64,000 nt of DNA from NCBI RefSeq assembly GCF_026571515.1, contig NW_026861239.1, positions 62,001 through 126,000 of the forward strand. Direction: 5' to 3'. The notes beneath the pieces were generated by a model. It had not been told where the DNA came from, searched no databases, and was given only the letters and a program-made list of their open reading frames with translations. Origin of the DNA: Ruditapes philippinarum. Lineage: Eukaryota. Each line of letters starts with the position of its first letter. Position 1 is the stretch's first letter. Both the position numbers and the translations under genes were made by a program. Shown piece after piece: positions 1 to 57,589 of this stretch.

Positions 1-787
1 CAATCCTAATTTCAACCTATCTGGTTGAGGAAAATCTGTTTTGAGATAAAATAAAACAACCAAATCATATTTTTGATTTCTAATTATAGCTATTTGCAAT
101 GATGTGGGCACTTTCAGAAATCCGAGATTGATCAATGCCATTTGTTATTTTGCCATTAACAAAATTAAATTAATCATCAGATATAATTTCCAGATTTTTA
201 TTTAACAATATTAAGTTAGAACGTGAACATTTTAAGCTCTTTTTAAAACTCAAACAGAATAATAAAAAAAAATACGTCTGGTGTTGTCAACGAATATTAT
301 TTATGCGTTTGTGCTTTTAAAGCTAGATACTGATGCAAGAAGTAACAATGGCAGAGTCCATTGACGATATTTCAGAATCGACATTATGTGGGCCAATTGC
401 AAAATTTGTATTTATATGACAAGATCGGAAATTAAGTACAGACAAAATAAATACTTCATATAACTGAATACATGTATTTTTTATTGATGTCATAACAATA
501 TGAATTATTTCTCGAGTTTTGATATCATCGATCGGAATTTTGTTATTTTGTGTCATCTATTATATAAAATATTTATCTTTAGTAAATAATAAAGACAAAT
601 AAAAGTCTAACAATCAGATACACAATGATTGATTATTTAAATTGTTACTATTTGTATTACAACTCTAAAGATACTAAGTATGCAGTCTTGAATGAAAATA
701 TAAGCGAATTTGAGCTGCAGTTAAAATATTTGATCATTTATTGATCTTCGGTTTTGCCTTCAGGGACTTTAAGCTTATGAACAAGCT

Positions 788-912
788 TTTGTTTGTTTGT
801 TTTATTGGGTTTTACGTCACACCGACACAGTATATGTCATATGGCAACGTTCCAGCTTTACTGGCGGAGGACGACCTCGGGTGCCCTTCCGTGCATTATT
901 TCAGGAACGGAC
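788..912 (-). mobile_element. 5'-truncated SINE (bivalve RUDI/V-domain-like family) with 12-bp TSD
   Basis: TSD tatgaacaagct at 776-787 and 913-924; (tttg)n tail; body aligns with the copies at 57.6, 58.5 and 63.7 kb. The family name is from memory. Confidence 0.85.
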
Positions 913-3059
913 TATGAACAAGCTAATAGATTTTTTTATTAAAACATGACTGTATCATTTAAAACAATAAACGATAATGTTGTTCATTTCTGAAGTGTAC
1001 TATTTAAACTTTTGTAGGAAGCATAAGGCTTATACAATTTAATTGGCGACCCTGAACTTACACGAACTTACCCTTATCACTTGTTCAGAGTAAAGTGTGT
1101 GTTAGATATAGCAATGAAGAAAAATATATCAGCTTCTAAGCCTGGTAAGTTAATGTTCCTTTGCATATAGAGACTATTGTTAAAGAATCCGTAATGAACA
1201 TAGTTTAAAATTTAAATGAATGTGAAATCGAAGAACAACTCGGTTGTTTAATGCCGGAGGAATATGTTTATTTTGAGTATTTTTATGTTTTTGCCTCTTA
1301 GTATTTCTAGATACACTTATTTGTAGTAATAATTTAAATAAATCAATCAGAGTATGTCGGAGTTTGTATAATCTTCATAAAAGAAGCGAGGAAAATGTGG
1401 ATAGCAACATCTAAGTTCATATGGCTAAAAATAAAACGGAACAATTGGTCATAGCCTCCTGCTTTTGAGATTAAACATTAACAGTTGTAAGTGCCTTTTT
1501 TTGGGTTATTTCGAACATATTATATTCCTTGGGAACAAAAGTATAATAGCAGTGAACTGTGTCATGATGACGCCTGTCTGTGACGGGAACTTTGACTAAA
1601 GTAGAATTTTACATTTTCATTTCTATACAGATTTCAGATATAAACTTGACACGACAGAAATCATATCGTTTTAGATATAGGAAATTATGTTACTTTTGTA
1701 TATTTCTCCTGATAAATCCTTAATAATAACATCCTGTTCAAATTTCTATAAGCAATATTAAATAACTGATACTGTTTTGTGTTTACTCGTTTGGCAATTT
1801 GACTAATACAATTAACGATTTGATATATCAAGGTATTTAATGTTTAATTAATTGATTTAATGTAATGAATTTCCAGACCAACACAATAGTAAATATCTAA
1901 ACTTGAAAATGAGTGAAGCGAAGAATTATGTGTTACAGAAAGAACAATGGTGAATAAGGCAAGGCGATGTTCACAAAATGCAGCCCGATGCAGCCACACT
2001 AGCAGGGTACTCAGAAGGCACCGAATCAGAAGCGTGAGAGGGCAACACAGCGGGGAAAGGAGGAGGGGACATGTCAATATCATAACGTATCATATAATAT
2101 TATCGTAATGAAGAACCGATTACATAAAAAGTATAACTAGCTGATACTCATCTCATTTAAAATGAGATTATGCTTATTTTTTCGATGTCATTTTAAAGTT
2201 GACTTGAATTAAGTAATATATTTCTATATGTGATTTACTATAATAGATGGTGATTAACCAATAATGTTAAGGATAAAATAAAGAAATCTAAAAGTATAAA
2301 TTTTTTGAAACACTGAACCATTTTTTTAGAAATTGAACGTTATCGATACATTTTGAACAATACTTATAAAAATTTCTAAAGAAACAGGGATTATTGATAA
2401 CTTTTGCACAGCGAAATATAAATTTGAACAAATTCATGGATCAATGTGAAGTGATTTTGACTTAAACATGTGCAAACACTATTAACACTTGGATTGGCAT
2501 AATGTGGCTTTGTTTTGCCACCTCATTACAGTACAGTTTACTGTTTACTAATCTCCTTGTAAAGCTTTTCTTACCTTAATCAATTCAGTTTTTAAAACTG
2601 TACGGATTTAATTGACTGATTTAAAGTTCAAACCAATATTGTAAGGATTTTATTTCTCTGGTTAAGTCTACACGAAGTCTTATAGCATTAAATACTTGAT
2701 AAATTGTCAATTTCCAAAACATTGTTTTATTACGAACCATGCTTGATTTTTTAAGAGCATTATTGAACTTTGGAGAATTGTTATTGTTAAGAATGACGCT
2801 GACCTAGATTGTGTATAAATTGAGTTAAATTATCAAAGGGTAACAACATAAATTGTCTTCAGGAGGCACGCAGTGAAAATAAAAGCAATTGTTATATAAT
2901 CAATCAAATAATTGAGATATATTGAATAAAAATTGCACAAAAAGTTGGCTATGGGATAATGGAATTTATTAAGTAAAATGATGAAACATTGTTTTATGAT
3001 GGAGTTGCAACGGATTATCATTATCGCTCACAAGAGAGTCAGTGTTAGAAATATGAAGA

Positions 3060-4180
3060 ACAAGATAAACAAGGAATGACGACATTTAGTAAACGTATTA
3101 GACAAAGTTCATAACTCTTCATCATTATTTTGTTAATATATGGCCCTAAGTTCATGATTTATTTAACATTGTAGAAGTTCACTAGGCAATACTACATGCC
3201 ATATATCAAGGCTCAAGACTAAGTCGTTTCCCACAAAACGACTTAAATGTGTTTTCTATAAGTTTATTAGCTGACCTCGAGAGAGGGACCAATTTTGATT
3301 TTTTTCAAAGAACTACAAGGAATGTTAAAATGGAAAACATGGGCATTTTAGTCTCACAAAAGTATATTTGAATTACATTTACTATGTATATTATATTTAA
3401 ACTAAGTGACTCAAGGGCGGGCACATTTTGACCTTAGGTGCATCATTTATATACTTTTGTAGTGGTTCTTCCATAATACTACAAGCTAAATATCCGAGTC
3501 GTGTGCATAATAGTTTAACGCAATAATATGAGTTTTCTGAAAGTTTCTTAAATCGTGAAAACAAGAGGCATGGTTTGCAGAACTTTTGTAGTTGACCACA
3601 AGTTGATGCTACATGACAAATATCTTGTTCTGGTCATTGCAGTTTCGAGGGAGAGTATTTATCAGATGTTTAACTATACTTCTATGAAAAATTGTGTCCC
3701 CGAATGGCAAGAGCTTACATTATTCTGTAGAAGACAACTATGTAATGCTATTGACTGAACATCAATACTTTGACCATCGTAGTTTCACAAAAAGGCAAAT
3801 ACATTTATTTACTATAATAGTATATTTTAACTTAATGAGCCCTAAGGCATAACAAGTTTTGATCCCTGGGACATGATCTATATAATTATAGTAAAGGAAG
3901 ACAAATTTATATTTCGCTTCATATCTAAGCTTGGGTTCTTAGAAGAGATTTTAAAAGATTATTTCTAGGTCCATTTTATGTTCCTGTGAATCAGACAAGA
4001 ACCGTGTATATAATACAATTTGCAATGGACCACCATATGACTATTCCTATTAACTTAAGTCACAATCTACCCTAGAAATATTGTTTTTTGGAGTAAATGT
4101 TATTGTGAATAACGACGAACGACGAATCACGCACGAAAGACGACATACATGTACATCATGCGAGCTCATGTGAACTGAAA
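3060..4180 (+). mobile_element. Degenerate Helentron-type non-autonomous element (pearl/CvA/HINE-like) with internal ~130-150 bp tandem units
   Basis: Recurring ctacatg.caaatatc-like motifs (~3192, ~3479, ~3609), a (gacga)-rich microsatellite at ~4110-4145 and a terminal hairpin-like gctcatgtgaactgaaa. A decayed paralogue lies at ~13500-14130. Confidence 0.55.
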
Positions 4181-6276
4181 ATTACAATAAAGTGTGAAGA
4201 TAATTCTTTTAGAAACCAATTTCAAATGATGTATGAGATACAAATGTTTTGATTATTATTTCTAGCACTGTTTCCCCTCTTTAATTGTTTTTGCTTACAA
4301 CAACGGGTGTAGAAGGGTGTGTGATGGGCTTCCCTGACATAATTTAAGTATTGCTATAATTTTATGTCCCTGGTTCTTCGAGAGAAATTGCTATAATTTC
4401 ATTGGATTCGTAATAGAACTTATTGCTTAATTTAGTGCTAGGTGAGTTAAAAAATGAGATATCTCATATTATCTGTCATAAATAGATTTATTTGAACAAA
4501 ATATAACTATTTTGTGCAGTATATCTTACGTAAGAATATACGAATCTTTGGATCTCTGGAAGAATCAACAAGACATTTAACTGATTAAAATTTTAATAAC
4601 AAACAAAACGATAACAAGCTGATGTGATCATTATCAACATTGTGAAAGGATGTACTGCACACAAAATGTCGTCAAAAAGGTCACTTAAGTGAAGTACAAC
4701 AATAAAACCCCACGGCATAATTCCTACTTAACGTTAAATGGTGAGAAATTGAATGTCAGGCAATTATTGCAATCATATTATTTATTGTACAGCGGATGTT
4801 ATTTTAGTGCGTGTCAATAAACATAGAGGAGATAGAGAAGAAGTCAAATAGTACATCATAGTTAAATCGTCGCTGATTTACAAAACGTGCAAAAAAATGG
4901 TCAAGATTTTTTTATATAAGCTATCCTTATAAAAATACATATTTTAGTAACTATTTAATTTACAGTCTTTCTGTATTTAAACATAAAAATCCTTCCACTA
5001 AAATGTACTTATCTACTGACACTTGATGATGAGAAAGTAGTGTCTTATGTACGTATTATATACTGTTTTGATTTAAAGCCCGAGTTTCTGCAGTCTTAAA
5101 ACCTTTTACAGAGAATGAAGAAAATGCCATTTATTTTCCAAATAAGATACCTAAATGATATACTTTGAGCCCGAAGAGAAAGATGAACCATTAAACTGTC
5201 ATAGAAATGTGTTTCCACTTTAATGTGTCTTTGAAAAAGATCTTAATAATGTAAACAACCTAGAAAGAAAAAAAGATTATGATTAGAAAAGAAATTTAGT
5301 ACAGAAACCATGTTAAACAAGAGTCAATAATAGTGTAAACATGTAAGTGTACAAATTATGTTGAATTCTTATTCAATTCAAAATTAAATATTGTTGTTAT
5401 CAATTCTTGGCATTTATAAAGACTAATACATACATCAAAGAAATGACATTTAATAAAGTTTAAAAAATGATTTTAATAAAAACAATGCAACGGAAAAGGG
5501 CATACATGTAAAACCACATGTGCAACATTTCTATCTCTAAATAAGCCTATAGTAAAACATACTATATTCATAACATTCTTACGTCAGATAACAATCTGAC
5601 ACATTTTTAGAAGATAGATGAAACAGATGATTTGATCGATGAGTGAATTTTATGTATAAAGTAGATAACGATATCACATATTAAATGTTAGAGTTATAAA
5701 CACGTATCTTAATACCCGTTGGGACGTTTTCTTTTTTAATGAATGCTTAAAAACAAGTGTTCATTATTTTCCAATCGTTTTCCGAGTCCATCTTGTTACT
5801 TTGTCCATTATCTAATTATTGAATAAAAAAAAGACTAAATTTTACATTCCAAATGTTTAAATGTCTTCCGATTTTTTTCTGAAACAATAACTTGATTTAA
5901 AGAGCATTTTAAAGAATGTTTGAACAGTTTATTTCAATTTCTGAATTGATCAATCAAGAAGAGGAATAAAAAATAAATGAATGGAACTTTAAACTATCAC
6001 GCTATTATCTCTTCATTCAATTTCGAAAAGAAATCGCTTCCTAACTTCAATCAATGAATCAAAGCTATCCAATTCTATTGTAACATCACGATAATATTTC
6101 ACCATCAAATGCATATATAAATTCTGAAAGCGTTGAACTATTTTCCGTATTTTGATTAACTTACAAAAGCCTGGATATTCTCAACCAATTTATAAGTGGA
6201 ATGCCGTATTGATATTTTGATAATATCCTTTTTTACGTTCACACAATTGACCTTAAACGAATTTGGTATCGTTATT

Positions 6277-11438: not shown

Positions 11439-12638
11439 CGAAGGGTGTTCTATGAATGCAACTGGGTCAAATTTCAGAAGTGCTTAACAAACAGTGCCAA
11501 AATAATTGTCTCAATCCTTATAAATACTCACCACCATGTGATATACAATAATTTAGTCTTTTTATCCAATTTTTAATGCGTTTTCATAATCTTTTCGAGG
11601 TATTCGGTTCCGACACTGGAAAAAAGCGATCCGAAACTTTTTCGCGTTTTATTTTTCTTCCAGCAAGGTGTTTTTGAGTCTCGGAAATAGGAAAAAGTCA
11701 CAAGGGCAAGATCTGGCGAATAAGGAGGGTGATGAAGCTAGACAACCTTTTTCTGTTTCAGATATTCTCGTACAATGGCCGCTATGTGTGAAGAAAAAAA
11801 GCATTGTCATGCATTTGAATAGCAGGACCTTGATTGGTAAAGAAAATAATTACATACATGACATTTTTGACGCTCATGGTGCGTTTTGCTATGCAAGGTC
11901 TTTGACTTCCTTTGGTTGCTTATATTTTGTTATGCATCTTTCGCTTGGGCTCATAAAAGTGAACCCATGCCACATCGCCAGTAATGATATTTGCGAAAGA
12001 TCGATTGTTTATTTCGCGAACTGTTTCAACAATTGTTTGGAGAGTCTTACACGAGCAAGTGTTTGCTCATTTGTTAGGAGATGGGGTATCCATCTGGCAC
12101 TTATCCTTCTGATTTTTAAGTCACGCATGAGAATTCTATGAGGGGCACATACAGAGATACCTACGCATTTAGCTATATACTTAGTTGTAAATCTTGCATC
12201 AAAGCAATAAAATACTTTACTTTTCAGCCATCTTTTGCGAAGTTGCAGGTTTCGGACGGCCTTCATGAGATGCATCTTTTACTGAATAAACACCACTTTT
12301 AAATTTCTTACACCACCGTGTGGCAGATGAAAAAGAATGTTTATTGTTACCATAAACACGTCATATTTCATTTATTATGTCTTTCGCCTGTATACCAATA
12401 ATATAGCAGTTTTTGATATAAGACCGTATTTTGTCAGTGAAAGGAGACCTTTTGCTTTAGTATACACGAGTAGATAGCGTAAATCGAGCTATTGACAAAG
12501 CTAGACTTCACCGATTTACACATGTATTGTATTAATTGAGAGCTTACACAACCATCTATGCCATTCATGTACATAGTTCGCGCAAAACGTGGTTAAAAGC
12601 GAGATTTTGGCCAAGTTGCATTCATATTTGAACACATT
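11439..12638 (-). mobile_element. Decayed mariner (Tc1/mariner) transposon with a pseudogenised transposase
   Basis: TA|CGAAGGGTGTTC left end; TIR tatgaatgcaactgggtcaaa versus right (reverse-complemented) tatgaatgcaacttggccaaa. Minus-strand frames give ARWIPHLLT (WVPHEL motif) and HPPYSPDLA-CDFFLFPRLK (YSPDL motif), with frameshifts. Confidence 0.92.
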
Positions 12639-19199: not shown

Positions 19200-20377
19200 C
19201 TATTGAAAAATAGGACCATCCTCGGTCATGGAAGTTTCACTGTCCGAAACAGAACCGCGTTCAAACTTTAATGGCGTCAGATTCCTTTCCGAGCCGTCGT
19301 CAGATTTATCATCAGCCACCGGGGACCAATACACTTTGTTATTGATAGTGTCTGTATGAAGCTGTATCGACTGCCGTCTGCCGTCACCTAGTTCGATGCT
19401 TGCAATTAGTTTTTCAGGGAGAACATCTAATGATCGTTTCCTTTCACCATTTCCACCCTCTGAGCGGGAAACCATAGGCGTATGTTCAATTTCAGGCAGA
19501 GATAATCGCTTTCCGTCTTTGCCCAATTCTTGAATCTTCTCCATTGATCGAGCTTTTGATTTTCCTTCGGCGGATTTCGTCTTGTTTGAATTCTTTACTT
19601 TTGACCTATCAAGGTGATATCGTGAATCGTGATGTAAAACTGTAATTTCTGTACCAACGTCACTTTTTGCGGTTTCTGCTACAGTAACAAGAGTAGCTCT
19701 ATCGTCACCATCATCGTTCTGAATCACAGCATTCTCATTGTCGTCATCATCTCCTTCATCGCATTGTGTCTGTGTTGACGATGTTTTAAGTTTTGGTCGA
19801 CTGTTTTCACGATATGGATAAATCTTATAATGTTTTTGGGCAAAGTCAAGTTCAAGGTCATTATAGCGTTCGTTATATCTGTTGAGATATCTTGAAATGG
19901 ACTCAGCGGAGAAATCTGTCCCTGTAGTCGCATCAGAAAAATCATCATCGTCATCAATTTTTCCAAGCTGGAAGCGATTCAAATGATAGTCAATCTCTCC
20001 GTACGGTGGTGCTGCCTGAGCATGTTTCTTTGGAGCCGAGCAGATAGCAGCGATATTTGCAAGCTTAACAAATCTTGATCTACCCTTCCCATCTTGTCGA
20101 ACTGGTTTTATATCTTGCAAAGTGAAGCCTTTCTTTGCAAGCCACTCTTCTACAGATAAACCATACTTTTTATCTCGATGTTGGGTACTCGCTTTGCCTT
20201 GACCTACAAGAATCTGTGCACATGTAATATTTCCATGCTTTGCAGCCATAAGTAGAGCCGTGAAACCTTCATCATTTATTGCTTCTATATTTAGACCAAG
20301 GCGCCGGAAATGACGTATGAGAATATCACATGCGATGTCGTTTCCAACCATTGCGCTATAAATCAGAGGCGTGTTTC
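19200..20377 (-). CDS. ANKRD63-like: ANKRD63-like ankyrin-repeat gene, terminal coding exon (last ankyrin repeats plus long acidic/Ser-rich tail)
   Basis: Acceptor tttcattttgcag| ends at 20378. With the G from the previous exon it reads GNTPLIYSAMVGNDIACDILIRHFRRLGLNIEAINDEGFTALLMAAKHGNITCAQILV, then continues as the 383-aa ORF to TAG at 19202-19200. The FRRLGL segment between ankyrin repeats matches my recollection of vertebrate ANKRD63. Confidence 0.9.
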
Positions 20378-20852
20378 CTGCAAAATGAAATGAAACACCT
20401 CGATAAGAACTGATTACGTGCTTTTAGTGAGATTAATTTTCTATGTATTCTATCCGTTCACGATTGCATCTCCTATCAATCTGGTTTGATAGAATTAATA
20501 CAACGTATATCAGTATCAAGTGTACGACAATGACTTTGTAATAATTGAATTGCCGTTTCTACTTGTATAATTGAAATTCTAGCAATCAACTTAATGCGCA
20601 AGCGCAAGACTGACGACAGCAAATTAGATATGAATGTCATTTTTATATGAGACCAGATAACGTATTATCAAATTATCTTGCTGCTAATGGATGAGACAAT
20701 GAACTTCTTTACCAAGACACTGATTATTACGTCTAATAAGATGAAAATGACACGCTGAGATACAATACATAAACAAACGTTATATAGTAGTAGTTAATGG
20801 TAAATGTACTGCTCTTTTTCTTCGGCTTTATTGCAACCACTAGGAGTTTCGA

Positions 20853-21020
20853 NNNNNNNNNNNNNNNNNNNNNNNNNNNNNNNNNNNNNNNNNNNNNNNN
20901 NNNNNNNNNNNNNNNNNNNNNNNNNNNNNNNNNNNNNNNNNNNNNNNNNNNNNNNNNNNNNNNNNNNNNNNNNNNNNNNNNNNNNNNNNNNNNNNNNNNN
21001 NNNNNNNNNNNNNNNNNNNN
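20853..21020. other. Assembly gap (168 N) inside an ANKRD63-like intron
   Basis: Run of n characters. Confidence 1.
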
Positions 21021-21268
21021 TTAATGTGAAAAGTTAAATTCAAGTAATTTCCCTACTTTCGTAAACATTCCTTCTTTTAAAAACGGTCATCGCAATGTCT
21101 TTAAAAAATTAATGACACTTAGAAAAAACAGATTTAAATCTGATTTTAAGAAGAAGAGAAAAATATGTTCAAATTTTTAATTTTGACATCATAAGTCATA
21201 GTAATTAAACTTAATTTTACAGAACGGTAAAAATTATCTCATTAAGTAATGATGAGTAAAATGTATAC

Positions 21269-21446
21269 CATTTGTATCAGTTATGTCCGGATCGACGTTA
21301 TGCTCTTTGATTAGAATTCTCAGAATATCATTACAGCGTCTTTCGCAGACGTAACTGAGCGCCGTTCGTCCACAGTCATCCGTTGCGTTAACGTCAGCTC
21401 CATGACGTAATAGTAATCTCACTGTATTATCTCGAGCACCCTCCTC
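21269..21446 (-). CDS. ANKRD63-like: ANKRD63-like internal exon (ankyrin repeats), 178 nt, phase 0 in / phase 1 out
   Basis: ttgtttttgcag|GAG GAG GGT...ACA AAT G|gtatac. Encodes EEGARDNTVRLLLRHGADVNATDDCGRTALSYVCERRCNDILRILIKEHNVDPDITDTN(G) and joins the 20377 exon in frame to rebuild the canonical D..GNTPL ankyrin motif. Confidence 0.9.
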
Positions 21447-22122
21447 CTGCAAAAACAATAATATACAGTAACACCTATGTAGAAAAAGCCCTAAGGAGAT
21501 CAAAGATTTTTGTTGTTGAGAGGTGTTGCTGTAGAGACGTCAAATGTATTATAAATGATCGCATAGTGGGGACTTTTCCTTTGTTCTTACTAACCTATTA
21601 TACTCAGTACACTTCAATGAGCATTTGAAAACTGTATTGATATATAGCAGTACAGTTTTTTCATTGATTCATATAGGAAAAAAGTTTTTCCGCACCTTGT
21701 ATATATCAATGTAGTTTTTTTTACAGAGGCTTCATTGGGGCAGTGGTAACGAACATTCCCAGTAGCCAAAAAAAAAATGGAATCAATAAAATAAAATAAA
21801 TAAATAAATACAATGAAAAATATAAACAAAGATAATTAATGAAATGAAATTTACTCTCATTTAATCAAAAGGTACGGCCACTGAATGAATTATTTCCACT
21901 GAAAAAAATCCTTTAATCTTGAATCAATATTGGTAAACAGTTTACAACCGCCTCTAACATTGGATGTCTTTTGTATATTTTTTTTTGCGGCAGCGAAATA
22001 ACTAGAAAAAAAAACTGCCTATTATAAATAAACTGTAATGGAGCTAACGATTTATTTATTTCTATAACAAAAAAAAAAACATTATGCCATTGCGATTAAA
22101 CAGTTATTGTATATCAAACTTC

Positions 22123-23584: not shown

Positions 23585-24788
23585 CTGAAAATATACAAAC
23601 GATAGAACTTTAAATAAATAGGATTAAAAACACCACTAAGCAAAGGATAAAGCCTACAGCAACTTTTGTAGAATGATTGTGCAGATAATTTGCCTCTTTC
23701 CTATTTTATTGCAACCAATATAATCTTGGCTGCATTTATTTGGCTGGAAAATGATTTCTTAAACTATGCTGCATTTCACGAATGCCATTTTTCCTTGTCG
23801 ATATTTAATTTTATATTGTTATATGTCTGTAATATAAACTATTAAAAAGTCAGAAAAGGCATGTCTGAAATGCCAGTCAATCTTTGGTTAATCAACAATA
23901 CATTCATCAAAGTGCGATATCCTCCGTACATGTTTTTGACGTTCAGAGGAGGAAATAAAATGTAATAGAATATTCTTGTTATAAAACTGAAATAATAAAT
24001 GTGTTCATCGATTTAAAGAGTTATTATGAAAACCTTTATTTGTAAAACATAGTTTTTATAAAACAACATTCCCTTTCCTCATAATAATAACAGCTGGTGC
24101 ATTTTCTTAGGTATTAAAGAAAACTACTGGTAATAAATGATGATGAAACATACAGTAATAGGTACATTTACTAGTCAACAAGCATTTAGTGAAACAACAA
24201 AAATTATCATTCCATATTGTCCATAAATGGGTTACCCGTTTTCATTTAAATTCAATGAAAGCCGACTATCATCGGATTTCAAAATGAGAAATTTCTTAAC
24301 TGGTATACATTCCTCTAGATTTCATATCTGTTATAGCCTTTATCAAATATATTCAAGTGTAAAAGAATCTTTATATAAAGCAACTGACAGAAGTTTCATA
24401 CAATGACCAATGTACCTGATAAAATACATTTTTTTTGTAAATCCAAAATAAAAATAAAAATTCAATTATCATTTCAAGCAGGTGATATTAAGATATACTA
24501 GTTTACGTCATAAAAAATGCACATACAGCACGCCTTTTCCTCAAACTGCATGTTTCGTTGGACTTTTCCTTAATACCTAGCACACTACAATACTACATTT
24601 CTTAACATGAAGCTAACTTTACATTATGTTTCATGTGCAAACTGATTTTATTTACTTTCACAAACGTAGTTTTCAATGAATCATTGTCGGTTATTTAATG
24701 GTAAACAAAGTAATGATATTCCTCCAAAACGTACGAATTGAAAACGCATTGTTTTGCGTATAAACATTGAAATTAATAACGTGCGTAC

Positions 24789-25195
24789 ATGTTAACAACA
24801 CCTCCTTTAGCGATATACTTTTGAAGATATCTATCAACCCTGGCTTTTGAAGAATTGAGTTTGGCTTTTGATTGTATTCGTTTCATATGATTCCTCATAA
24901 GGTCAACAGACAAACTCCTACAAATGTCCGTCTGTCTTAAGTCGTCTCCAAGTTGACTCCAACTTTCAACATCTATATTATTTTGATTTTCAGTATAATC
25001 TGATTGTGATGATTTCTTTGCTTTTCTGTTCCTCCTTTTCCTAGATCTTCTTCGTTTTATTTTGGACCCCTCTAGACAGTCTTGTTCGTCAGTGGTAATG
25101 GATTTTGTCTTATATTTTGTATCATCAGTATAACACAGTCTTCCCGGAAGTCTTAGTTTTCCGTTTTTAACCTCCTTGTAAATGTCATAATCCAT
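24789..25195 (-). CDS. Probable first coding exon of the ANKRD63-like gene (Lys/Arg-rich N-terminus); alternatively a stand-alone 140-aa ORF ending at 24773
   Basis: 140-aa hydrophilic ORF in AT-rich DNA containing KIKRRRSRKRRNRKAKK. A donor AT|GTACGC at 24789/24788 gives 407 nt (phase 2), matching the phase-2 acceptor at 23584. The ORF stops four codons after this donor, as expected for read-through into an intron. Confidence 0.55.
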
Positions 25196-26189
25196 TCTTC
25201 TGTTAAACTGTTATCTATATTTTTATTATATAAAAAAGTTATTATTTTAAAGACGTTGCAGTTATTGTCCTCTACCAGTTTTCAGTTCCGTTTTAGAAAT
25301 TGATAAATTTAAAGTCTTTGTTGTATTAAAGTAACTTTGCATTTTATGTTCTTCTAAAAGTTGGTATCAATTGAATTCCTTAAGATGTTTTTAGTTTGCT
25401 CTTTCTCTTTTTATGCTCTGATTTTCTATTACACAAGCAAGAATTACTTCATTTAAAAATACTTAAAAGTCAGAAGTACCAACAGTATCGAAATTTAGAA
25501 GAAATAAAGCTTTCTTGCTGAAGACAGCCAACTTTGAATTCAACCAAGTGTAATCAATTACATTTGGTAATTAACAATACTATTTGTATTTCTTCATGTC
25601 ATTACTGGATATTTGCGTTTTTGCACCGGTTTTACAGGACTTACATAAGTAAAACAAAAAATCCGCAACCATTGCTGTGATTGAATTGTTTGTTTTGATA
25701 GGTTGATGTCACGAGAGAAAAAAAAATTGACAATTAACTCTTGTTTTATCATTGCAAAATAATTAATCATGGTAATAGCAAATGCACTCTCGCTAATGAA
25801 CACAGTCCTTCGTACAAGGTATGTGTCTATTAATGAAAGGTTTCATTGCACTATCAGAACGAGTGAAGGAAGAAAATTGAAAGTGCACGCAAAACTTCTT
25901 TCATCAAAATTACTTTTTCCTGGCAACTATCTCGTTCTTTAGAAATAAAACTATAATAAAATAAAGCAAACAAAGAAATTGAAATAATATAATTGTAAAT
26001 AAGTTCTGTCCCCATGGTAATATTTATGTAACTACAATGTAAAGTTTCAAGTTTTATTTATCATTTTGCCATGTATGTACATGTATAGAAACAAATTGGT
26101 AGAAATTGTAAGGAACCTTCTATAATGCTTTTTTTCTTAACTTAAAATATATCCACTGTTTCAAAACCAGTATCCATCTTTGATGAAGG

Positions 26190-34858: not shown

Positions 34859-37800
34859 ATGTAGATGTAGAAATAACGTCGTGACATCATTAAATTTGGT
34901 GATACATGAGAAAAACCAAATGTTGTCCTAGAATTTTTTTATATTGCATACATTTCGTTCAAAGTTATATATGTAGAATACTGCACATGCACATAGGTAA
35001 AACAACAAGGCCAAATATCGTTAAACTCATTAATGCAAAGCATTTGAAAAACAAACAAAAAACCCATCTCTTTAAAGGCCCATTAAGTCTTAAAATGATA
35101 TCATTTTATTTCTCGAAAGCTTTGAATTTTTGCTGGCCAGTTTATACAACACGTTACCCATTTGGCCATCTTTTGCTTCTTTTGTGTTCGTGCAATTAGT
35201 ATAATTATAGTGAGTTAGTATTTTGTATGGAAGTCAAAATTCCATTTTGTTTACATTTTGTGACTTTTTCTGACTTAGTTTTTTCACATTTAGGACTATT
35301 TTCTTAAGGTGATCTACATCTCACGTAATCTTAATCATTTTATTACAACGTCATAAAACACATTTTCCTCCCTTCTTCAGAAACACAAAATGTATTCATT
35401 TCTGTTACAGTCTTGACACATCTTTTAATATGCCCTTATTGCACACAGAATGAAAATTCTTTATATGATGCATTAATAAACTATATATTATACTTTCAAT
35501 ATAAATGCAATACAAAAATTGAAATTTCAAAAGCCTCATTTCGGCAAAAGGATAAAGATTTAAACGAACGGAATGCAAATTGTACACAAGAACACAATAT
35601 GGCTCAAAACTTACAAAATAACATTATTACCCATATTCACTTACCTTCTTTTTGTTGGTAATGCCATTTTAATGTCCAAGCTTTTTTACTTTGCTTTCAA
35701 CATTTCATTTAACACAGCCAAGGAAAGTGATGTTTGAAAAGCAATTATAAACAAATTACGTAATTATTTTCCTTTTTTTTGTAATTAAATTGAAACAATT
35801 ATGTTTACATTAAGCCAAGATCATTGCCTTCTGTACAGATTTAGCAGTACCATTGACAAAATCGGAAAGCAATTAAGAAAGATGGTAAACAAATTAGCGA
35901 ATGATATCTATTAAGTTATAAATGGAAAGAGTCAAAGCACCTCACTGGCTTTCTTACAACTGCAATCAATTTCGCACCGAGCACGGCAGAATTGTACATT
36001 ATATCGCCGGATTTCACTTCCAATATCAGTTAGTACCGCAGCAGCTTCTTTATTACTTTCTAAAAATGGAAATGTTATAGAGAGGAAAAAGTCCATTAAT
36101 AAGCTGTTTAATGTCGGTCGGAGGAAAAACTGTTTGGTTTTATTTCTTTACACTTTATCGTAATGTTGCCTCCATACGAGACTGGATTCTTTAAAAAAAA
36201 GAAAAGAATACAAAGTACATGTAGCATTTTGAATGCCGCTAAATGTACGTTTTAAAGTAATACAAAACTATTTATACGTACATTAAGACTAGTAAAACCG
36301 AATTAAAATCATTTTAATATGTATATCTTTGAAAGCTTATTTAAAATATAAAGTACTCGATTTTAAAAATAAATACTACGTCGTTTATAGCTATAGATGC
36401 ACTATGCTCATCGTTTGAGTTAAAAACATTTGTTGTTGAATTCAAGTGATTGCTAGGAAATTCATACTGAATATTTCTAAATTGACTTATTGACTACCCA
36501 CTTTAACAGAGAACCTGCTTTCTTTAATTTCAGACAAATTAAATTGGTCCTTTCTGTAAAAAGACTGCTAAATTTTTAATTGTATACTGTATATTTATTC
36601 TGTTTACCCATAGTGTGCAGAATTTGCAGAATTTTAAACGTTATATATCTAATTTATATGTTCTCCAACGTATTTACGTATTTATTCACTATTTCTATGA
36701 CTGTATGATTTATATTTTTTAGTAATAAATCTGTACAACAAGCCGAGCAATTATAGGATTTTTAAACAGTATCGTTACAGTGTAAAGAAATATTATGAAA
36801 ATTAAAAATCCACGGTCAAAAACTAAAAATGATGGAAAATAGAGAGGCTCGAAACAAAACGGTAATTATATTCTTTGCCACAAGTTTATGCTTTATTCAT
36901 ATTTGATAAAAATGTATCTTGTTATTGTATAATTCTTTCATATAAAAACAAATGGAAAAATCATGGCATACCTTCGCATAAATTGCCCGAAAGGCATATC
37001 ACATCTGTACGCGGCAAAAGACTTGAAGTTAGCATGAATATAAAAAATAACCACTTTGACTATTCAATTCTTTTTTATGCAGAATGTTAACTTTTAATAT
37101 TCTAAAATCACGGCGTTTGTGACTTCTTACATAACTTTTTTACTTCCATCTTCGGTTATTTCAATATCCCTTGTTTTCAGAAAATTCATCACACTGCTGT
37201 TTCACTTTCTAATGCCGTTCGTTATTACATTAGATGATTTGGACTGTATAGCGTGTATCTGGGTGGCATTGTACGTGTTTCCCTTAAATGTAATGATCTG
37301 TGTTTCTGTCTTGTACCATCGTATCATCAATTCTGATTAATTCTGTGATTAGGAAAATCCTAAAATGCTCACGTAATTGATACATTGTCTTAGAAGATAT
37401 TAAACAGATATCAATATCGCCTTAAGAAAGTGATATGGTACGGCAAGGAATCGTATATATAGTTATATTTCTCTTTGCCTGTTTTCGTCATGCATGTGTT
37501 GTATAATTAGAAATGACAACAACCATTGAAAACATGTTGCTCATGCTTTAATACTCATCCATAGTAAAATTTAGCGACAAGGAGATTTGCTGGACTTATA
37601 GAATTATATTATAATTACAATCGAACGATCTAATATGTGTTAAAATAGTCAGCAAAATAGTCAGTCTAAATTGAATGACTGTCACAACGTGAGTAGGTCG
37701 TGTGCGGACCAAACAAATTTGGTAACGGATGATTATTTATTATCTTAATTTAAGTCTAAATCTAAGTGTCTTATTGATCACGATTGCTGTCATAATCGTG

Positions 37801-45400: not shown

Positions 45401-46610
45401 TTTACGGAGTGAAAACCATTTTCAACTGTCTTTATACACATATGTTTTATGAAGTGTACCTTAAAATTTTTTTTGTACACTAATACTATAAATATTTTCT
45501 TAAAACATTTCGTTAAAACTGGCAAGAATCTGAAGCCGTCCTTGCGAAAATAATCAAAGATTATTGATTTTTATAAAGTTCAATGTGTCTTATTAAGTGT
45601 ACTCCCTGTTAGCGCAAGAAAAGTACATGTTTTAAGATAAAGGCTCCCAAGGAAAATTTCAGTGATCGGAAGATGCAGGTGCTTGTAAAGACTTGCAATG
45701 CAAGGTACGGTGATGTCGAAGTCATGCTTCTTAGCAACTTGTTTTAAACAAATTTATAATCTTCATAAAATGAATATAATTACCAATTTTCGCCCACTAT
45801 TTACAAAACTGTTTTAAAATATAACCAATGAGGAATTGATGAATAGAAATCATACAATACGTGCTAATTTTGAAAATACCACCTCTATCAGAGCAGATAA
45901 ATGGCATGCCCTTAGCAAGTGATGTATTGCTAATAACTTTTAGAGCAACCCACAGACATTACAAAATGCAATTGCGAAAAATGTCAAAGATGTTATTACA
46001 TTATTCTGTAAAAGAAATTTATTATTTTTATTAATATTTAACGAGCAATTAAAAAACTTAGAATACTGACTTGAATCATCTCATTTTCTGCTACAATGTC
46101 CAAAGCAAACAAGACCAAACTATAAATAAAACACAGAGTGTCTTTTGTTCTTAGAAAAAATCAACAACATTATAAACACTTTGACAGGTACAGTTTTAAC
46201 ATGATTTCTCCTGAGTCACTCCCTACATTTTAATTAGACGAAAATAAAACAATAAAAACAACAATTAATGAATTCATCTTTGATCTGAACTGAGTCTACT
46301 TTACATGGATTTTGCTAAATTTCTGAAATCGACTTGCCAATCATTCAATTTGGACATGATCATTAATAACTCTGAAGGGAAGAATACAAAATATGTACTG
46401 ACTGAATAGCGAATAATGCGGATACTGATATATGATTGGATAAAACAGAATTACCGGCTGACCTTGGTCTGTGTTGGTCGCTTGCACAGGATCGGTTACC
46501 GCCAGCCGGCTAAGAGTTTATGAATCGATTATTTGCATTATAAGAAAAATGTGAAGAATTATATATAACAATGAAGCAACATATCAAAAGATTTAATCAA
46601 AATATTTTAA
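42430..46610 (+). repeat. Tandem segmental duplication 2, unit A
   Basis: Long near-identical runs with 46625-53570, e.g. 43350-43530 versus 47745-47920. The paired noise ORFs 44642-44896 and 49071-49325 are paralogous. Confidence 0.95.
42809..43146. mobile_element. TTAA MITE, AGCAGCATGC family; predates duplication 2
   Basis: aagctgcccgcctctaga ... tctggaggcatactgctttaa; the corresponding copy in unit B is at 47193-47546. Confidence 0.7.
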
Positions 46611-47546: not shown

Positions 47547-50500
47547 GGGTATGTAAAGACATTTTATTAATAAAAGAATGCCGCCAACGTACACTAACAT
47601 AAAACAAATGTGTCCTAAAGCAGGCAAAGACAAAGAAAAATCACTGCACTTATTGTCGATTAATATAATCAAGCTCATATAAATATTTTATGAGGAAACT
47701 CTACCTGTCATCATCAATTTTATAAATTCATATAAACGTGCTTCACATAATGACAGGGTAATAATTGCTTACTTTGCTGAAGGCAAGTCATTACCTTTCA
47801 TACACAGTCTGTATTTTATTTGCAATTCTCGGGGGACATTGCATGGATTTTTGTTGACTGTAAAACCATTGGCACAAACTATTAGCGCCGTGCAGGGACT
47901 ATTGTTGCCATATAAATAATACAAACGATATATATGAGCATATTCACAATAACTAAAGATAAAAACAGTTTAAACTGAAAATAATAATGAAGAATAATCT
48001 TGTACAGTGGTTATCGTTATGCGAATCAATGATTTCTTTTGACACCATGAATTATCAGATATTATCTTTTGAACTGTATGATAAGAACAACAACTAAATC
48101 ATTCAATTATTGGTTACAAACCAAACAGTTTGCATTTGAATACTATTCTTATTAAAGGGTATAAATAGTTTCAAATAGTTAAATGGTATAAACACATTTA
48201 AACACAAGTGACATCATATGAAAAGGACGAAAATTGCAATCGATTTATACAAAGCAAGCAAAAATTGCAAGCAAAACCAAATTATAAATGACTTTGGTGG
48301 CGCACATAATCCCTGTGTTAATGTTAAAATAATGAACTTAATTTGTAAACGCGTTAGGTATTTTTCAATTCTAAAAGCAATGTTGAAATTATAAATAAGC
48401 CATAGAGAAATCTTAGAGAATAGGATTTTCGTTTTTATCATGATTAAGTTTAAATGATATTCATTAAGAAACTTAACGATGTAGCACCACAATCAGTAGA
48501 ACATAAATAGATGTGTGAGACTTAAGATATTGTCCCGTGAGACTCAAGGTATTGTCCCTATTTGTGATACCAAACAAAGTTAGTATATTCAATACTTTGA
48601 TTTATGAAACTGCAAAACCTTAGTATTTATATAAAAACATCACTTGCATCTTCGTTTTGAAACGTTTCAGTGAAATGAAAGTCTCAAACAAAATGCGCAA
48701 TTACAGAAGAGAACGAAACTTACATGCAAGCAGAATTCCTAACCTATTTTTTTAGCAACTAAAATATATCGAAAGGCCGAAAAGGTCACTTCTTGAAAAG
48801 AATTTGTTAGAAAGAAATTACGTACATAACGTTCGTCTACACTGCTTGATATATTTGTAGACAACTAAAATGTATTATTGGGTCATTTCGTAGTCTGTAA
48901 AGACAATTCAGCATGGTTTGTAAATTGCAAATTACATTATCATGTCTATCTTGCTTAAAATAATGATTGTGAAAACTTATTGGGGAGACTCTTTGAGAAA
49001 TCAAAGTGTTGTTTCATCAGCATTGAAGGCAATTTGCCGCTGTGTTTACAAATTGTCATATTTGTCCTCTTTAAAAAGTGTTGACCAAATTAAAAAGGAA
49101 ATAGCAAAGTTGAAAATTGGAAGTAAGATTGTTTCTGGAGTTTGACTGTATGAAAGACTTATTGACGTCAAGAAATAACAAAAGTAATGAAAGCTTAGCA
49201 CAGCAGACAAATAAATTTAAATGTGATGCTTGAAACTTTTTATTGCACAATAACGTTTCTTTATTTCTCTTCAAAATGATAATAGATTGTAGATTTAAGG
49301 TAAGACACTTATGCAATTGTACCAATGCACCCTATCTAACTTGATTCGTAACGTTTTATCTTGATATAAAATCAAAACTCTACAAACGGAAAAATGCTTT
49401 ACTAAAGGAAAAACGGTTTAGCAACTGTTTCAGTCATGTATAATATCACGAATCCAAAAGTCATTTCGTAAACAACTTGAAAAGCTACTCTTGCAAGTGG
49501 CAAATTGTTGTTCTAAAATGAAAGATAGACCTAAATTTTTTGCTACCTTAATCAAAATCAATCCTCACGTTTTTGTAAACACCATAAGATGACAAACTAC
49601 TTTCTTTGTAACGATTGTAGAAAACAAATCTGCAAAAGATAAATTGCAACGCAATGATAAGGCAAACAAAAAATCTATGGGATTTTGTCATTATTGATAA
49701 GGTTAATTTTTTTTGTCAGAGATACACCAATCTGACATGCTGCTTTCCTCGAACACCTTTCATTCAGGGACGAATGCATCTTATTATTTGATATTAAGTT
49801 TAATTAAAAAAGGAAGACAAATTAAAATGTCCAAAACTCCAGATAATGAAAAATAAAGCTTAATCAAATTAATGTACACATTTTAAGGAAAGTTTTAATA
49901 TTCCAAATCCATTGTTTTGCATTTTTAACATGATTGTTACCTCTCTATTAACAAGCTAACAATCTAACTATTTACGGAGTGAAAACCATTTTCAACTGTC
50001 TTTATACACATATGTTTTATGGAGTGTACCTTAAAATTATTTTTGTACACTAATACTATAAATATTTTCTTAAAATATTTCGTTAAAACTGGCAAGAATC
50101 TGAAGCCGTCCTTGCGAATATAATCAATGATTATTGATTTTTATAAAAATCAATGTGTCTTATTAAGTGTACTCCCTGTTACCGCAAGAAAAGTACATGT
50201 TTAACGATATAGGCTCCCAAGAAAAAGTTCAGTGATCGGAAGATGCAGGTGCTTGTAAAGACTTGCAATGCAAGGTACGGTGATGTCGAAGTCATGCTAC
50301 TTAGCAACTTGTTTTAAACAAATTAACAATCTTCATAAAATGAATATCATTCCCAATTGTCGCCCGCTATTTACAAAACGGTTTTAAAATATCACCGATG
50401 AGGAAATATATATAGAAATTATATAATACGTGATAATTTTGAAAATACCACCTCCATAAGACCAGATAAAGGGCATGCCCTACGCGAGTGATGTATTGCT

Positions 50501-50631
50501 GGCAACCTACAAAGATTACAAAATACAATCACGAAAAAGGTCAAAGATATAATTACATTTATGAGAGATATTTATTCTTTTTATAAATATTTTAAAGATA
50601 TACTATGCTCAAATTTGATATCAGAAAATAC

Positions 50632-52751
50632 CACAGTATGTAAACGATTTGAACCCCAACCGGATCTTGTGAGAAGATTTTAGTGTCAGCCATATTCTGC
50701 CGCTTCACTTGTTTACGATATTGGTATTTATATTGATACTGATGGACGTAAGGTTAGTAAATCTATATTTATATTGTAAGAGAGAAACTTTATTAAACGT
50801 CTAAGTTATGCAAAACATAAACGTAAGCACGAAGGTTATAAAATAACCGAAACTCACGAACTGCTTTCATGTGATCAACACTGAACACGAACAAAAATCC
50901 GTCTTATTCCAAGGTTGATTTAGTTTTAACATCGAATTGTGATATCGAACTACTAAAGTAATCAATAACAAACGATAATTTAGTCATATGCATAACATAT
51001 TGCTGTACCTTGAACATAAATTTAAGAGTTTTACCAAGGAGGTCATTTCCGTAAACTGAACGTTACTTGCTGGTGATTGTGAACCCTACTTGTGAGTTTA
51101 CGAATTTTATCTGTACCCTGACTTGTGAGTATATTTAAAGATTTATTGGAGAAAACGTTTACGTTAATTGCGATTTTGTATCAATTATTGCGAGAAAATA
51201 TAAATGATTGTAATAGAATTTTATTATATAAGGTGGGATCTAAGGTATTTACCGAGAATTGGTTTAACTGATACTATTGTTAATCATTTATGTAATAAAA
51301 TATATAGTGTTATGTATATTTTTCTTTCAGATCACCATGAAAGAATACAACTGCATATACTGTTCGGTCAAGACTACGATATGTACGAATTTCAATGCCG
51401 TCATTGACCACATAATTATTCGCCATCCAGACTGCAACTTGAAAATAAGAATAAATAATGATCAAAATAAAATTTCCTACTTAAAAAATTTCAGTGTCAA
51501 AGCCAATAACGTAAAAGAAAAAAAGAAATTTATAACACCAATAGCTGAAACACTAACAATTAAAATTTCAAAAATTCCCGAATATTCTCCGATTAAAAAG
51601 ATGCCAAAATTGTGGACGCCTATGAAAGAAAAAAAGACGTTTATAACTCCAATAGCTGAAACACTGACAATATTAAAATTTCAAAATTTTTCGAATATTC
51701 TCCGTTTAAAAAGATGCCAAAATTGTCGACGCCAATGATAGATATACAAGAATAAAAGTCGTACATGTCAGAAATAGAAAGTCAATGAATTTCTGAGAAT
51801 ATAGAACCTTGTTTTAAATCAACGGTAGGTGTAATAGCTTTCAACATGTTGCAAAAAATCTTGTAATCTTGTAATGATATTTCGAGGTTTATTGATACGT
51901 GATGTTATATAACGGTCACGGCAAAACTAACAACAATTCCGTTGAACTAAATATAAGAAATTTATAGTACATACGTAATATTTTAGCTTTATATCTTTCC
52001 AAAGAAGTATGAAAGGTATGTGAAGTTAATTATTCCTATCAAGAAATAATTGACTTTCTGGTTCGTATAACCAGCCACTTCATGCTGGTATTTTCGTAGA
52101 CAGTGAAAACATGACGAAACTCCATTCATATGCAGTTTTAGTTACTTACATAGAACTAAAACATGTACCATGCTCTTGTGACACAATAACTTCGTATTCT
52201 GCACAATAAAATTTGGATTATATGATAAAAACACAATAAATATCATCAAAAGTGACTCGCAAGTAATGGTTCAGTGAAAACACAAGTAGGGTACAGATCA
52301 TTAAAATTGTTTTAGCAAGACGGGTACAGTTATCAGAAATGTCGCCTCTATTATTTACTATGTTTTATCAATATTCAAAGCTATTTTCACAAGTGTCTGT
52401 CCGGTAATATGAGGTTAAGACAATAAAGTAAAGATTCAGATATGAGTTATAGTGAAGTAAAACAATTTTTAGCATAAATTTGCTAGTGTAATCGGCGTGT
52501 GTTGACATAAACAAAACATGAGGCGAAGAGCACAGCGTTTTATGCGCATATATTTTACGAAGAAGGTTATGGATGTATATATAAGCAAAGATAAAGTATA
52601 TCTCAATATGTTTCAAATGTTAACATATCGTAACATACTGAAATTAAGCCGATCTTTAATAGTTTAATGTGTCATCCCGCCTGATTGTACGTTTAGATGC
52701 TGAGATCTTCTCACAAGATCCGGTTGGGGTTCAAATCGTTTATATACTGTG
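50632..52751 (+). mobile_element. 2120-bp TIR transposon with CAC...GTG termini and 5-bp TSD (Transib/RAG-like candidate, non-autonomous)
   Basis: TIR CACAGTAT(G/A)TAAACGATTTGAACCCCAACCGGATCTTGTGAGAAGAT, 46 of 47 positions identical between the ends; TSD AATAC at 50627-50631 and 52752-52756. Confidence 0.92.
51337..51738 (+). pseudogene. Residual transposon ORF with an N-terminal CxxC-x15-HxxxxH zinc finger
   Basis: ttttctttcag|atcaccATG gives an acceptor plus Kozak-like context. Reads MKEYNCIYCSVKTTICTNFNAVIDHIIIRH...; an internal ~111-bp tandem duplication has a frameshifted second copy; no catalytic domain is visible. Confidence 0.6.
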
Positions 52752-53264
52752 AATACTGATAATTGCTACACAGTCTCTTTGTAAATATGAAATAGACATG
52801 TTTTGACTTCACACAAAGTTATTATGTCGTGTTTAAAACTCAACACTTATAGGTCGTCACAATATAAATACATAGTGTCGTTTAAAAAACTGGAAGTTTT
52901 TTTTTTAAGAAAAGACCAACTTTACTTGTTCTGTATTAGAAAACGTGACTTACCATATAGATTATGATTCATTTTCTATTTAAATTAGACAAATTCAGTA
53001 CGAATTTCATAGGTTTTAATAAATTTCTTCGATTAAAATATTTTACTCAAAGATGAGCATAGTATATCTGTAACGACACTTGAAATACCATGTCCAAAGC
53101 AAACGAGACCAAACTATAAATTAAACACAGTCATCCGTTCTAAGAAAAAAAAACATAATTTTTATAAAATTTGATAGGTACATGATTTATCCCGACTATA
53201 TACATTTATAGTTATACTACAATAAAGATATACAATTAATAAATTAATCTTTGATCTGAACTGA

Positions 53265-54092: not shown

Positions 54093-56635
54093 TTAAGAAA
54101 TAACAGACTCCTAACGCAGAGAATACAAATACGTTGAAATGAGCGCGGAGAAGTGTGCTTTTGTGCAGACGACTAGGAATAATGGTTTTTGTTATGAAGA
54201 AAAATTAAGACTTGGAAATTGTTTATCATATTTTCTCCTTCTTTTTCTTTGGACTCAAAGGACTGGCAAATAAAATAATGCCATATTGTATGAATTTCAA
54301 CACATCGGTCAGAGTATATAATATATATCAGAAACTTGTCCCATCTAATAACAAAAAATCGTTAAAATAAGAACACTTATTAGGAAATCAGATTATAAAC
54401 ACCTATAAACAGAACAATTTTTCTCTTAAAACCTCAAATTTTGAATCATCTTTTAAAATGACGTAGATTATAACATTCAACATTTCGAAATCAAAATTAA
54501 AAAAGGACATATCCGCAGTTGATGCTGGAGACAAATGTCAACCAATTACTTTATTAAATAACAAAAACAAAACTATCTTCCATTAAATCAACACATCCTC
54601 CATATATTATTCAGATACACAGCTTTGTTTTCTGAAAATCTATTAAAACAAATATATGTACCAGTTAATTTCTTTGAAAAATTAAGAATTAGTAGTGTTC
54701 TCTCATATCTTTGGTTAAAGTTTAAATCGCAGAGCCATTATAAAAGACCTATGGTGACTTTACTATCTAATTGGTGGGCGTATACTTCAGACATCTTTTG
54801 CGCTTAATGTTTGTCTTAAAAAGACAAAAAGGCATCCAATTTAGTCAAGTCATGTTGTTCAGGTTTGAAAGTATAAGTATTTACAAATTTTACATACAAA
54901 TTACATTTGTGTCCTTAAACATGCATATCTTTTAAAGTCTGATCAAGAATTTAAAAAAATCAAATGAACTAAGATTCACTATCTTATCAGAAATCTTAGC
55001 CTGGTTAAGTCTTTGCTAAACACTATTCAAAATACTCTTTAAGGTGTATTTACTTCCTTACCAACCAAGTAAACTGTTTCAATTATTTCAATCACACCTC
55101 GCACGAAACAGCAGATGTAATAACAAGACATCCTTTAGAAATGCTTCAAGCAAATCATGTAATGCGATAGTGAAGCGAGAAAACGTGCAATATTTGCAAT
55201 ATTTGCAACACGAGTGTTTTCAGCAATTGACTAGTGGCAATATTCATTCAAAATCCATATTGTATCATTTTACTTGCAGTTTCAACATTTTTTTTGTTCT
55301 GTGTTCTGCTGAATGTTTATTTTCAGCTATACAATACAGGTATATACAATAATAACAACAAAAGTTGCACTTTTAAATTATGTTGAATGCGATGATATAC
55401 AGTCCAGTTAATGTGAAAGCTGATTTAAACGCATTCCAAACATATCTTATTCGTACTTCTTAAACCTGGAACATAATTTCGTTTGTCGAGAATGAATTAA
55501 TTGAAACAGGTTAAACAAGCTCTAAGAACGCAATGACCTCACGTAGAGTAAAGAAAATGCGATTTAAAATAATTACATTGGTGCTGTGTTTGGTCCGCTT
55601 ATTTTTCTTTAAAAAAATGAGATAATCTTGTCTTGAATATGAAGGTTACCTTATTTTTTTTATTTCAGATATAAAAATAAAGTTCGACTATACTTAAAAT
55701 GCATTATTCTGTGTGCATGCTTGTTGTTAATGTGGAAAACGAAACAACAAAACAAAAGAAAAATAAATAAATAAATGAATAAACCCAAACACTACAAATA
55801 ACCAATAAAACAAAAATGCAAACTGCTAACGTTCTCACTTATTCAATTAATTGCATTTCTTCAGTAATTCTGTTGTTTCTTCTTCATTTGTATAATTGAA
55901 AATAAAAAAAAATGAAATAGAATTATCGCAGAAGAGGACATCACTACTGTACATTTGGGTTTCTTTGCCCCTTTTTGTAGCACAATTATTCTAACAGCTG
56001 TAATTTTTTAACACTACAGTTCTAGGCATGGACGAATATCATTACATCCGTCTTTCCGTCCTGCACTTATTATTAGGAAGGATTTAAATAAAATCAAAGG
56101 TTCATTCCATCATCAGAGAAGCCATTTACGCGCCTTGTTCGAGAATTAAGATTGTCGTCTGCAAGAATGATTTCTTCTATAAAATGCTTAATTGAATAAC
56201 AAGTAGGAATACCAAATCTCTGACTATATGTAGGTAGATTATTCAACCAACTTGCTGGCGTCAATGAAATAATGTATACTACAACTACAATATATAGTTT
56301 TATTGTTATCATCATTCTTTTTAAATACGAAACATTTATAAAAAATGTGTTTACATCAATGAAACAAATTTAGACCTGATATACATGAAAACTATTGTAT
56401 TTAATGAAAGATAACAAGAATGCGTAAATTTTGCTCAACAACCGTTATTTTTATTCTTAACTAACATGCTGTTTTGCTAACGTAAAACGATCACAGATAT
56501 AACATTACACCGTTATGAATGTAATGTGTCTCTTGAAATAAAGTTCAAGAGCGATCAATAGTAAAACAACCTTAATAACTGATATAAATACTGACATTAC
56601 GACAGTGATCGTAAACATACAATAACTCCCGACAT

Positions 56636-56969
56636 TTAAAGAAATATTATGCTCATATTTGATTCTTCAAATCATTGATAAAATTGCTTTCTCCGTTTAC
56701 TGTAATTATTGTAAAATAATTATGTTTTGATAACACAGAGATATGTCAAATTTAAAACTCTACACACTATAGGTAAAGGCAGCATAAACACAAAGCCTCA
56801 TAAGAAAGGGCCACCCTAACATGACCTGTAATAAGAAAATGTAGCTTCCTATTTATAGTTTGTGCATTTTTTTATTCAAAGTATATATAGTCAGTAAACA
56901 TTTCCTAGATTTCAATAAATTTCTTCTCTAAAATTATTTTGTCCAAAGATAAACATAGTCTATCTCTAA
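56636..56969. mobile_element. TTAA MITE, same family as 50592-53073
   Basis: ttaaagaaatattatgctcat ... ataaacatagtctatctctaa; internal similarity (tttaaaactc.acac..tataggt). Confidence 0.7.
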
Positions 56970-57589
56970 TTAATTTGAATAAATGTTATTTAGATTTGTT
57001 TATAGATCATACTACATTAAAAAGTCAAGAAGGTGTGATTTAACACCAGGAATGTTACATGTATTTATCTCACAGAAAAAAAACTTATTTTAATTAGCTG
57101 TAATCAGTCAACGACAGACTTTAAGTTTGATTGCCATGTATGTGCGGCGACCTTTAAAGTTCACACTAGCTGATCTTATAGAAGAAAAAGATTTATTGTC
57201 CATTTGTTCTGACAATTTGATATGTAAGAATCACAATCTATTAAACGTATTACCTTAATTCTATAACAAAAAGAAGTCATGAGCATACTAATGACACTAA
57301 TTATGCGAAAGGAGTGTCCGTTAGGTTGTTGTTGTCTACGTAATTGTAACCAAACTTTAAACCAAACTACCATGATGAAGTACCAAATGAATAATTCTTT
57401 CCTTTAACATGTCAAAGGCTTAAAAAAAAACGAGCGTGCAGTTGAATAAGTATTTGGAGTTTTGTCATGAACAATTCATGTTATTTCTGTTGATGTCTTA
57501 GATTTAGTTTTTCTGGGATTATACGTCTTTCACAAGAAAAACAAATAGAATTAATGACCTTTTCATCCTCGAAAAAGAACATATATGAT

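Follow-up and report, generated by a model that had tools for sequence, protein, structure and literature searches.

In a 64,000-nucleotide window of the Ruditapes philippinarum genome (contig NW_026861239.1, forward-strand positions 62,001 to 126,000; positions below are those of the window), we identified a transposon of 2,120 bp at 50632-52751 that retains, of a large gene, only codons 1-96. Combining the structure of its ends with the homology of its gene fragment, we suggest with good confidence that this element is likely moved in trans by an intact family member, whose protein is, by prediction, a DDE transposase resembling that of the P element, with a lambda exonuclease placed within its catalytic fold.

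The element's 47-bp terminal inverted repeats (TIRs) are identical at 46 of 47 positions, the sole mismatch being at position 9, and both start with CACAGTA, which agrees with the heptamer of the recombination signal sequence (RSS) at 6 of 7 positions. The 26-nt core of the TIR occurs twice in the window, a count reached in 0 of 100 shuffles. Directly outside the TIRs lie two copies of AATAC, an AT-rich target site duplication (TSD) of 5 bp: the duplication is complete at length 5 only (5/5), other lengths from 2 to 10 giving 1-3 matches, and the chance of the five bases is 0.003 given the local composition. A nonamer was sought 12 and 23 bp from the heptamer, with 1/9 matches at each distance at both ends. 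In all these respects an earlier note, made from the letters alone, had read the sequence correctly: the TIRs with one mismatch and CACAGTA at both ends, the exact AATAC TSD, the caveat that no nonamer lies at 12 or 23 bp and the internal open reading frame (ORF) with a CxxC-x15-HxxxxH motif were each recovered. Chapaev/EnSpm (CMC) elements, which have CAC termini and TSDs of 2-4 bp, do not fit the observed TSD, the 2-4-bp windows matching at one position each.

Of 24 public sequencing runs, with 'mollusc metagenome' among their labels, four were compared to the window. All three contig runs have contigs with a joint from 50626 to 52752 at which five letters fit either side, and 176 raw RNA reads show this joint as well; it represents empty sites, with a single AATAC, in other copies of the repeat that hosts the element. 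In the window a paralog of this repeat (~56635-56970) spans the insertion site without the element. The host is a miniature inverted-repeat transposable element (MITE) of 357 bp without the insert, has inverted ends of ~27 bp, AG...CT termini and TTAA/GTAA outside, and looks Kolobok-like; another paralog lies at 36392-36483, and the MITE has very high depth in all four runs. The nesting comprises three layers, the host MITE itself interrupting a third repeat (50381-53250), of which a copy at 45811-46279 is without the MITE. The transposon, too, is present in many copies in the DNA runs: in run X15 the summed contig depth, which is not a copy number, is 209-5,090 inside the element versus 10-18 in the left flank.

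The ORF of the element has the zinc ligands C6-x2-C9-x15-H25-x4-H30, the spacing in its relatives being x12 (CxxC-x12-H-x4-H). A Pfam search with the ORF returned zero matches, and phmmer against 1.84 billion proteins gave 14. A profile aligned from the ORF, six short phmmer matches and four cluster mates, used to score 8,000 candidates, retrieved one long protein, P0020 (R. philippinarum LOC132745056, 1,563 aa), with an E value of 4e-48 and 48% identity, the homology being limited to codons 1-96. The element is a deletion derivative, as had been proposed. In a tree of N-terminal segments (29 of 34 rows; five rows with fewer than 60 residues were left out), the ORF lies inside the clade of P0020 with support 99/99. 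Residues 150-900 of P0020 as a query yielded 37 proteins, among whose names are Mytilus, Mercenaria, Pinctada, Batillaria and Branchiostoma. Pieces of the transposase gene were also found in two bacterial symbiont genome bins (L005-L007), probably by host contamination, which likely explains the bacterial name of P0028 as well.

A scan of metagenomes gave four sister-family loci (three distinct), whose DNA is 65-69% alike around the gene start. In two of them, L003 and L004, homology sets in abruptly with a TIR identical to that of the element at 34 of 47 positions, the best match to the 47-bp TIR outside TIR copies being 27/47; L004 begins with a perfect CACAGTG heptamer. From TIR to ATG the distance is 698 bp in these loci versus 705 bp in the window element. 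L004 joins the zinc finger to the C-terminus of the protein (E 2e-9 to residues 1534-1568 of P0021) and therefore derives from the whole gene by internal deletion. Because the same TIR is found at the same distance before the gene start in a family this divergent, in one copy together with the C-terminus, we conclude that TIR and gene travel together. At L001:855 and L002:4105 a lone sister-family TIR lies at about codon 212-222 within a truncated transposase gene; the sequence past it resembles a right end more, which suggests a nested insertion in reverse orientation.

The model of P0020 together with the alignments predicts an RNase H triad of D306, D854 and E1421 with a DxxH motif at 1251-1254 (D1251xxH1254), i.e. 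the D, D, [C/D]xxH, E signature of the P superfamily (PMC8230255), and a P-type insertion domain in the RNase H DDE fold. The [C/D]xxH motif is also common to hAT, MuDR, Kolobok and Dada (PMC9587614). A helical bundle and the lambda exonuclease are inserted between strands 1 and 2 of the predicted RNase H fold; the YqaJ domain spans residues 505-652, and its predicted PD-(D/E)XK site is intact (E562, D604, E620, K622). All DDE and exonuclease residues are kept in 20 of the 37 sampled family proteins.

CAC ends combined with a 5-bp TSD are taken as grounds for Transib/RAG-like calls (PMC1131882, PMC7204232), and in Repbase the class of a non-autonomous element follows from its termini and the length of its TSD (PMC4455052). 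The earlier note accordingly proposed a Transib/RAG-like family, and both features are present here, the 5'-CAC termini resembling the RSS heptamer and the TSD being known from one insertion. On this account the ends would be those of a Transib or RAG-like (RAGL) transposase and the zinc-finger piece would be captured cargo. We consider this highly improbable: (i) the sister family carries the same TIR ahead of the same start of the gene, (ii) the TIR agrees with the protostome RAGL TIR consensus (PMC7204232) at 6-7 of 17 positions and is without a nonamer, (iii) the TIRs are long and symmetric and the target is AT-rich, and (iv) by its predicted structure the parent protein appears much closer to P than to HzTransib (6pqx), BbRAGL (6b40) or RAG1. 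The proposed family assignment does not hold, as the transposase of the relatives is predicted to be P-like with YqaJ, and no transposase of the RAG1-core type was found in the family. With regard to a convergent RAG2L gene, three short minus-strand frames gave no Pfam match, but the element is a deletion derivative. It is likely, then, that the CAC ends and 5-bp TSD of the element do not prove a link to RAG. A P-like lineage with this signature would mean that Transib/RAG-like calls need the transposase.

Alternatively, the element could be an ordinary member of the P superfamily, in which 7-8-bp TSDs are usual and a 5-bp TSD would be aberrant, or its lineage, with these features, could already be curated as P in Repbase or Dfam. 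The strong structural match to P, the CA termini and the single observed TSD agree with this, given that ~2% of natural P TSDs differ from 8 bp (PMC3698922). However, the empty-site reads share exactly five letters, the 7- and 8-bp windows match at three positions only, THAP does not appear in the Pfam listings of 37 or 34 members, the RNase H fold has two large insertions, and a Leu, not an Asp, stands three residues before the catalytic Glu in 21 of 25 members; overall, this possibility seems improbable. Compared with Drosophila P and THAP9 (PDB 6p5a), the differences are as follows: TSDs are 8 bp in P and 7 bp in Galileo and 1360 versus 5 bp, in one case, here; the N-terminal domain is of C2H2 type and not THAP (C2CH); the first and second catalytic Asp (D1 and D2) are 548 residues apart versus 73 in P, owing to the helical bundle and exonuclease; D2 and DxxH are 397 apart versus 36; and the protein has ~1,560 aa versus 751 aa. 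The position of the GTP-contacting D528 of P, matched only by offset from E531, is occupied by Leu (21), Gln (3) or Met (1) in all 25 members. We found no published account of such a P lineage in the available sources; the family may already be present in Repbase, Repbase Reports, Dfam, subscription journals or the supplements of the bivalve transposable-element library (PMC10294476). We suggest that the element works like P yet misses two P hallmarks, the 7-8-bp TSD and THAP; it also has the end signature of Transib but differs from it in the transposase, and we thus regard it as a plain member of neither.

Two named groups of eukaryotic DNA transposons have a YqaJ/lambda exonuclease, KolobokE (Kolobok) and ISL2EU (PHIS), in which, as in the family, a DDE transposon carries a PD-(D/E)XK nuclease of putative role. 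Membership in one of these groups would account for the YqaJ domain of P0020; Kolobok also has the C/DxxH motif (PMC9587614), and the host MITE looks Kolobok-like. Nevertheless, we find it scarcely credible. The nuclease of KolobokE lies downstream of the DDE domain and that of ISL2EU in a second ORF (PMC4482050), whereas here it lies in the same polypeptide, between D306 and D854; KolobokE has a TTAA TSD and RR...YY termini (PMC9587614) and ISL2EU an AT target and GG termini (PMC4482050), whereas the element ends in CAC...GTG and duplicated AATAC. Moreover, the stretch from D2 to E has no conserved zinc finger in the family.

Several observations weigh against assigning the element to a P-like family. 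The window element is without recognisable catalytic or C-terminal sequence, and its 3' half cannot be aligned to L002-L004 above shuffles. The loci L001-L004 yield 5' ends or a lone TIR and none has both ends; a right TIR was sought in L003 and L004 and none was found, and the lone TIR inside the gene in L001 and L002 has no partner within its contig. As this is the only copy recovered with both ends, the 5-bp TSD length comes from a single insertion, and P-superfamily TSDs are 7-8 bp, with 8 and 9 bp in BuT5 (PMC3698922). The PF21787 match in P0020 scores 20.8 bits, under the curated cut-off of 24.6, and a sequence-profile search of the PDB retrieves no transposase, so the link to P rests mainly on predicted structure. 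Finally, the TG(A/T)ACCC...CTTG motif described below was defined only once it had been seen, and in L003 and L004 it is found in the TIR and not in the interior.

This motif, TG(A/T)ACCC-N1-3-CTTG, is present in both TIRs and in mirror-symmetric pairs 424-481 bp from each end; the four interior copies compare with 0 in the remaining 61.9 kb and with at most 1 in 2,000 shuffles for a post hoc definition. P has internal transposase-binding sites (PMC7776569), which the subterminal copies resemble by analogy.

The element had also been described as young and its ORF as spliced. Youth holds in part only. The intact TIRs and TSD agree with it; against it, at 19 of 33 listed positions inside the element another base stands in nearly all raw reads, 40 of 42 reads do not have the frameshifting 2-bp insertion at 51670, and the internal duplication is 89% identical. 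Every frame reaches stops soon past this duplication. The spliced ORF could not be upheld: the 15 joints listed, all of the host repeat, include no splice joint, one contig crosses the region unspliced, and the splice signals sit 5' of the ATG. An acceptor 6 nt 5' of the ATG is kept in the window element, L003 and L004, and a donor-like site is found at +122 in the window element and at +123 in L004; this conservation suggests a 5'-untranslated region (UTR) intron rather than a spliced ORF.

In the mechanism that we propose, an intact family member would supply the transposase in trans for cut-and-paste transposition; the transposase would excise the element and attack the two strands of the target with an offset of 5 bp. 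In place of THAP, the C2H2-finger domain would bind TG(A/T)ACCC...CTTG in the TIRs and near the ends. Lambda-type exonucleases act 5'->3' on double-stranded ends. The role that we favour, at a judged probability slightly short of even, is that the exonuclease would resect the donor break 5'->3', directing repair towards recopying the element from the sister or homolog and so raising copy number. Alternatively, and in our judgement with less probability, the exonuclease may trim the non-transferred strand to give a 3' overhang such as that from the 17-nt staggered cleavage of P transposase at its ends (PMC7776569); other roles or none we judge slightly less probable still. A general job at the donor break seems likelier than the 17-nt 3' extension because the unrelated KolobokE and ISL2EU also carry an exonuclease. 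The role of YqaJ nucleases in DNA transposons has been called unknown (PMC4482050); with the candidate binding motifs, ends and target geometry that the element supplies for its family, this question becomes testable.

A bolder reading, which we regard as rather unlikely, is that the family represents an unnamed, widespread animal lineage of cut-and-paste transposons that is sister to P, with convergent, RSS-like CACAGT ends and 5-bp TSD, a C2H2 finger without clear solved counterpart in place of THAP, perhaps no use of GTP and an exonuclease that makes the long single-stranded 3' ends which P obtains from its staggered cleavage; some mollusc and annelid elements classed at present as Transib/RAG-like by CAC and 5 bp would then belong here. 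The family in any case offers a natural relative of P with which to ask on what the 8-bp stagger at the target and the need for GTP depend.

Features of the element and its host repeat, in window positions
Feature	Position	Strand	Basis or remark
Older high-copy host MITE holding the element	50592..53073	.	Loose ends at 50591/50592 and 53073; paralogs
Left 5-bp TSD, AATAC	50627..50631	.	TSD window comparison; empty-site joint sharing 5 letters
Left 47-bp TIR, starts CACAGTA	50632..50678	+	34/47 identical to sister-family 5' ends, L003 and L004
Predicted 5'-UTR intron	50753..51330	+	GTTAGT at +122 as donor-like site; TTTCAG acceptor 6 nt 5' of ATG
Two TG(A/T)ACCC-N1-3-CTTG copies, candidate transposase-binding sites	51080..51126	+	449 and 481 bp from left end
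Truncated transposase ORF, C2H2-type zinc-finger N-terminal domain	51337..51738	+	Homology over codons 1-96, ending at 51627; this copy has a frameshift at 51670
Internal tandem duplication, 111/113 bp, 89% identical, codons ~60-96	51514..51742	+	Self-comparison
Two mirror-oriented copies of the TG(A/T)ACCC-N1-3-CTTG motif	52282..52328	-	457 and 424 bp from right end
Right 47-bp TIR	52705..52751	-	TIR alignment
Right 5-bp TSD, AATAC	52752..52756	.	TSD window comparison

Elsewhere in the window, the translation, inspected by eye, points to exons of an ankyrin-repeat-like gene on the minus strand at 19200-20423 and 21234-21539, with an N gap at 20853-21020. Open frames of 183 and 145 aa at 11590-12141 (plus strand) and 24773-25210 (minus strand) possibly derive from other mobile elements. 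On the plus strand, a 50-nt stretch starting CACAGTCTG is found in identical form at 43409 and 47803, 4.4 kb apart; the two copies are part of a direct repeat and match the TIR at only 15 of 20 positions.
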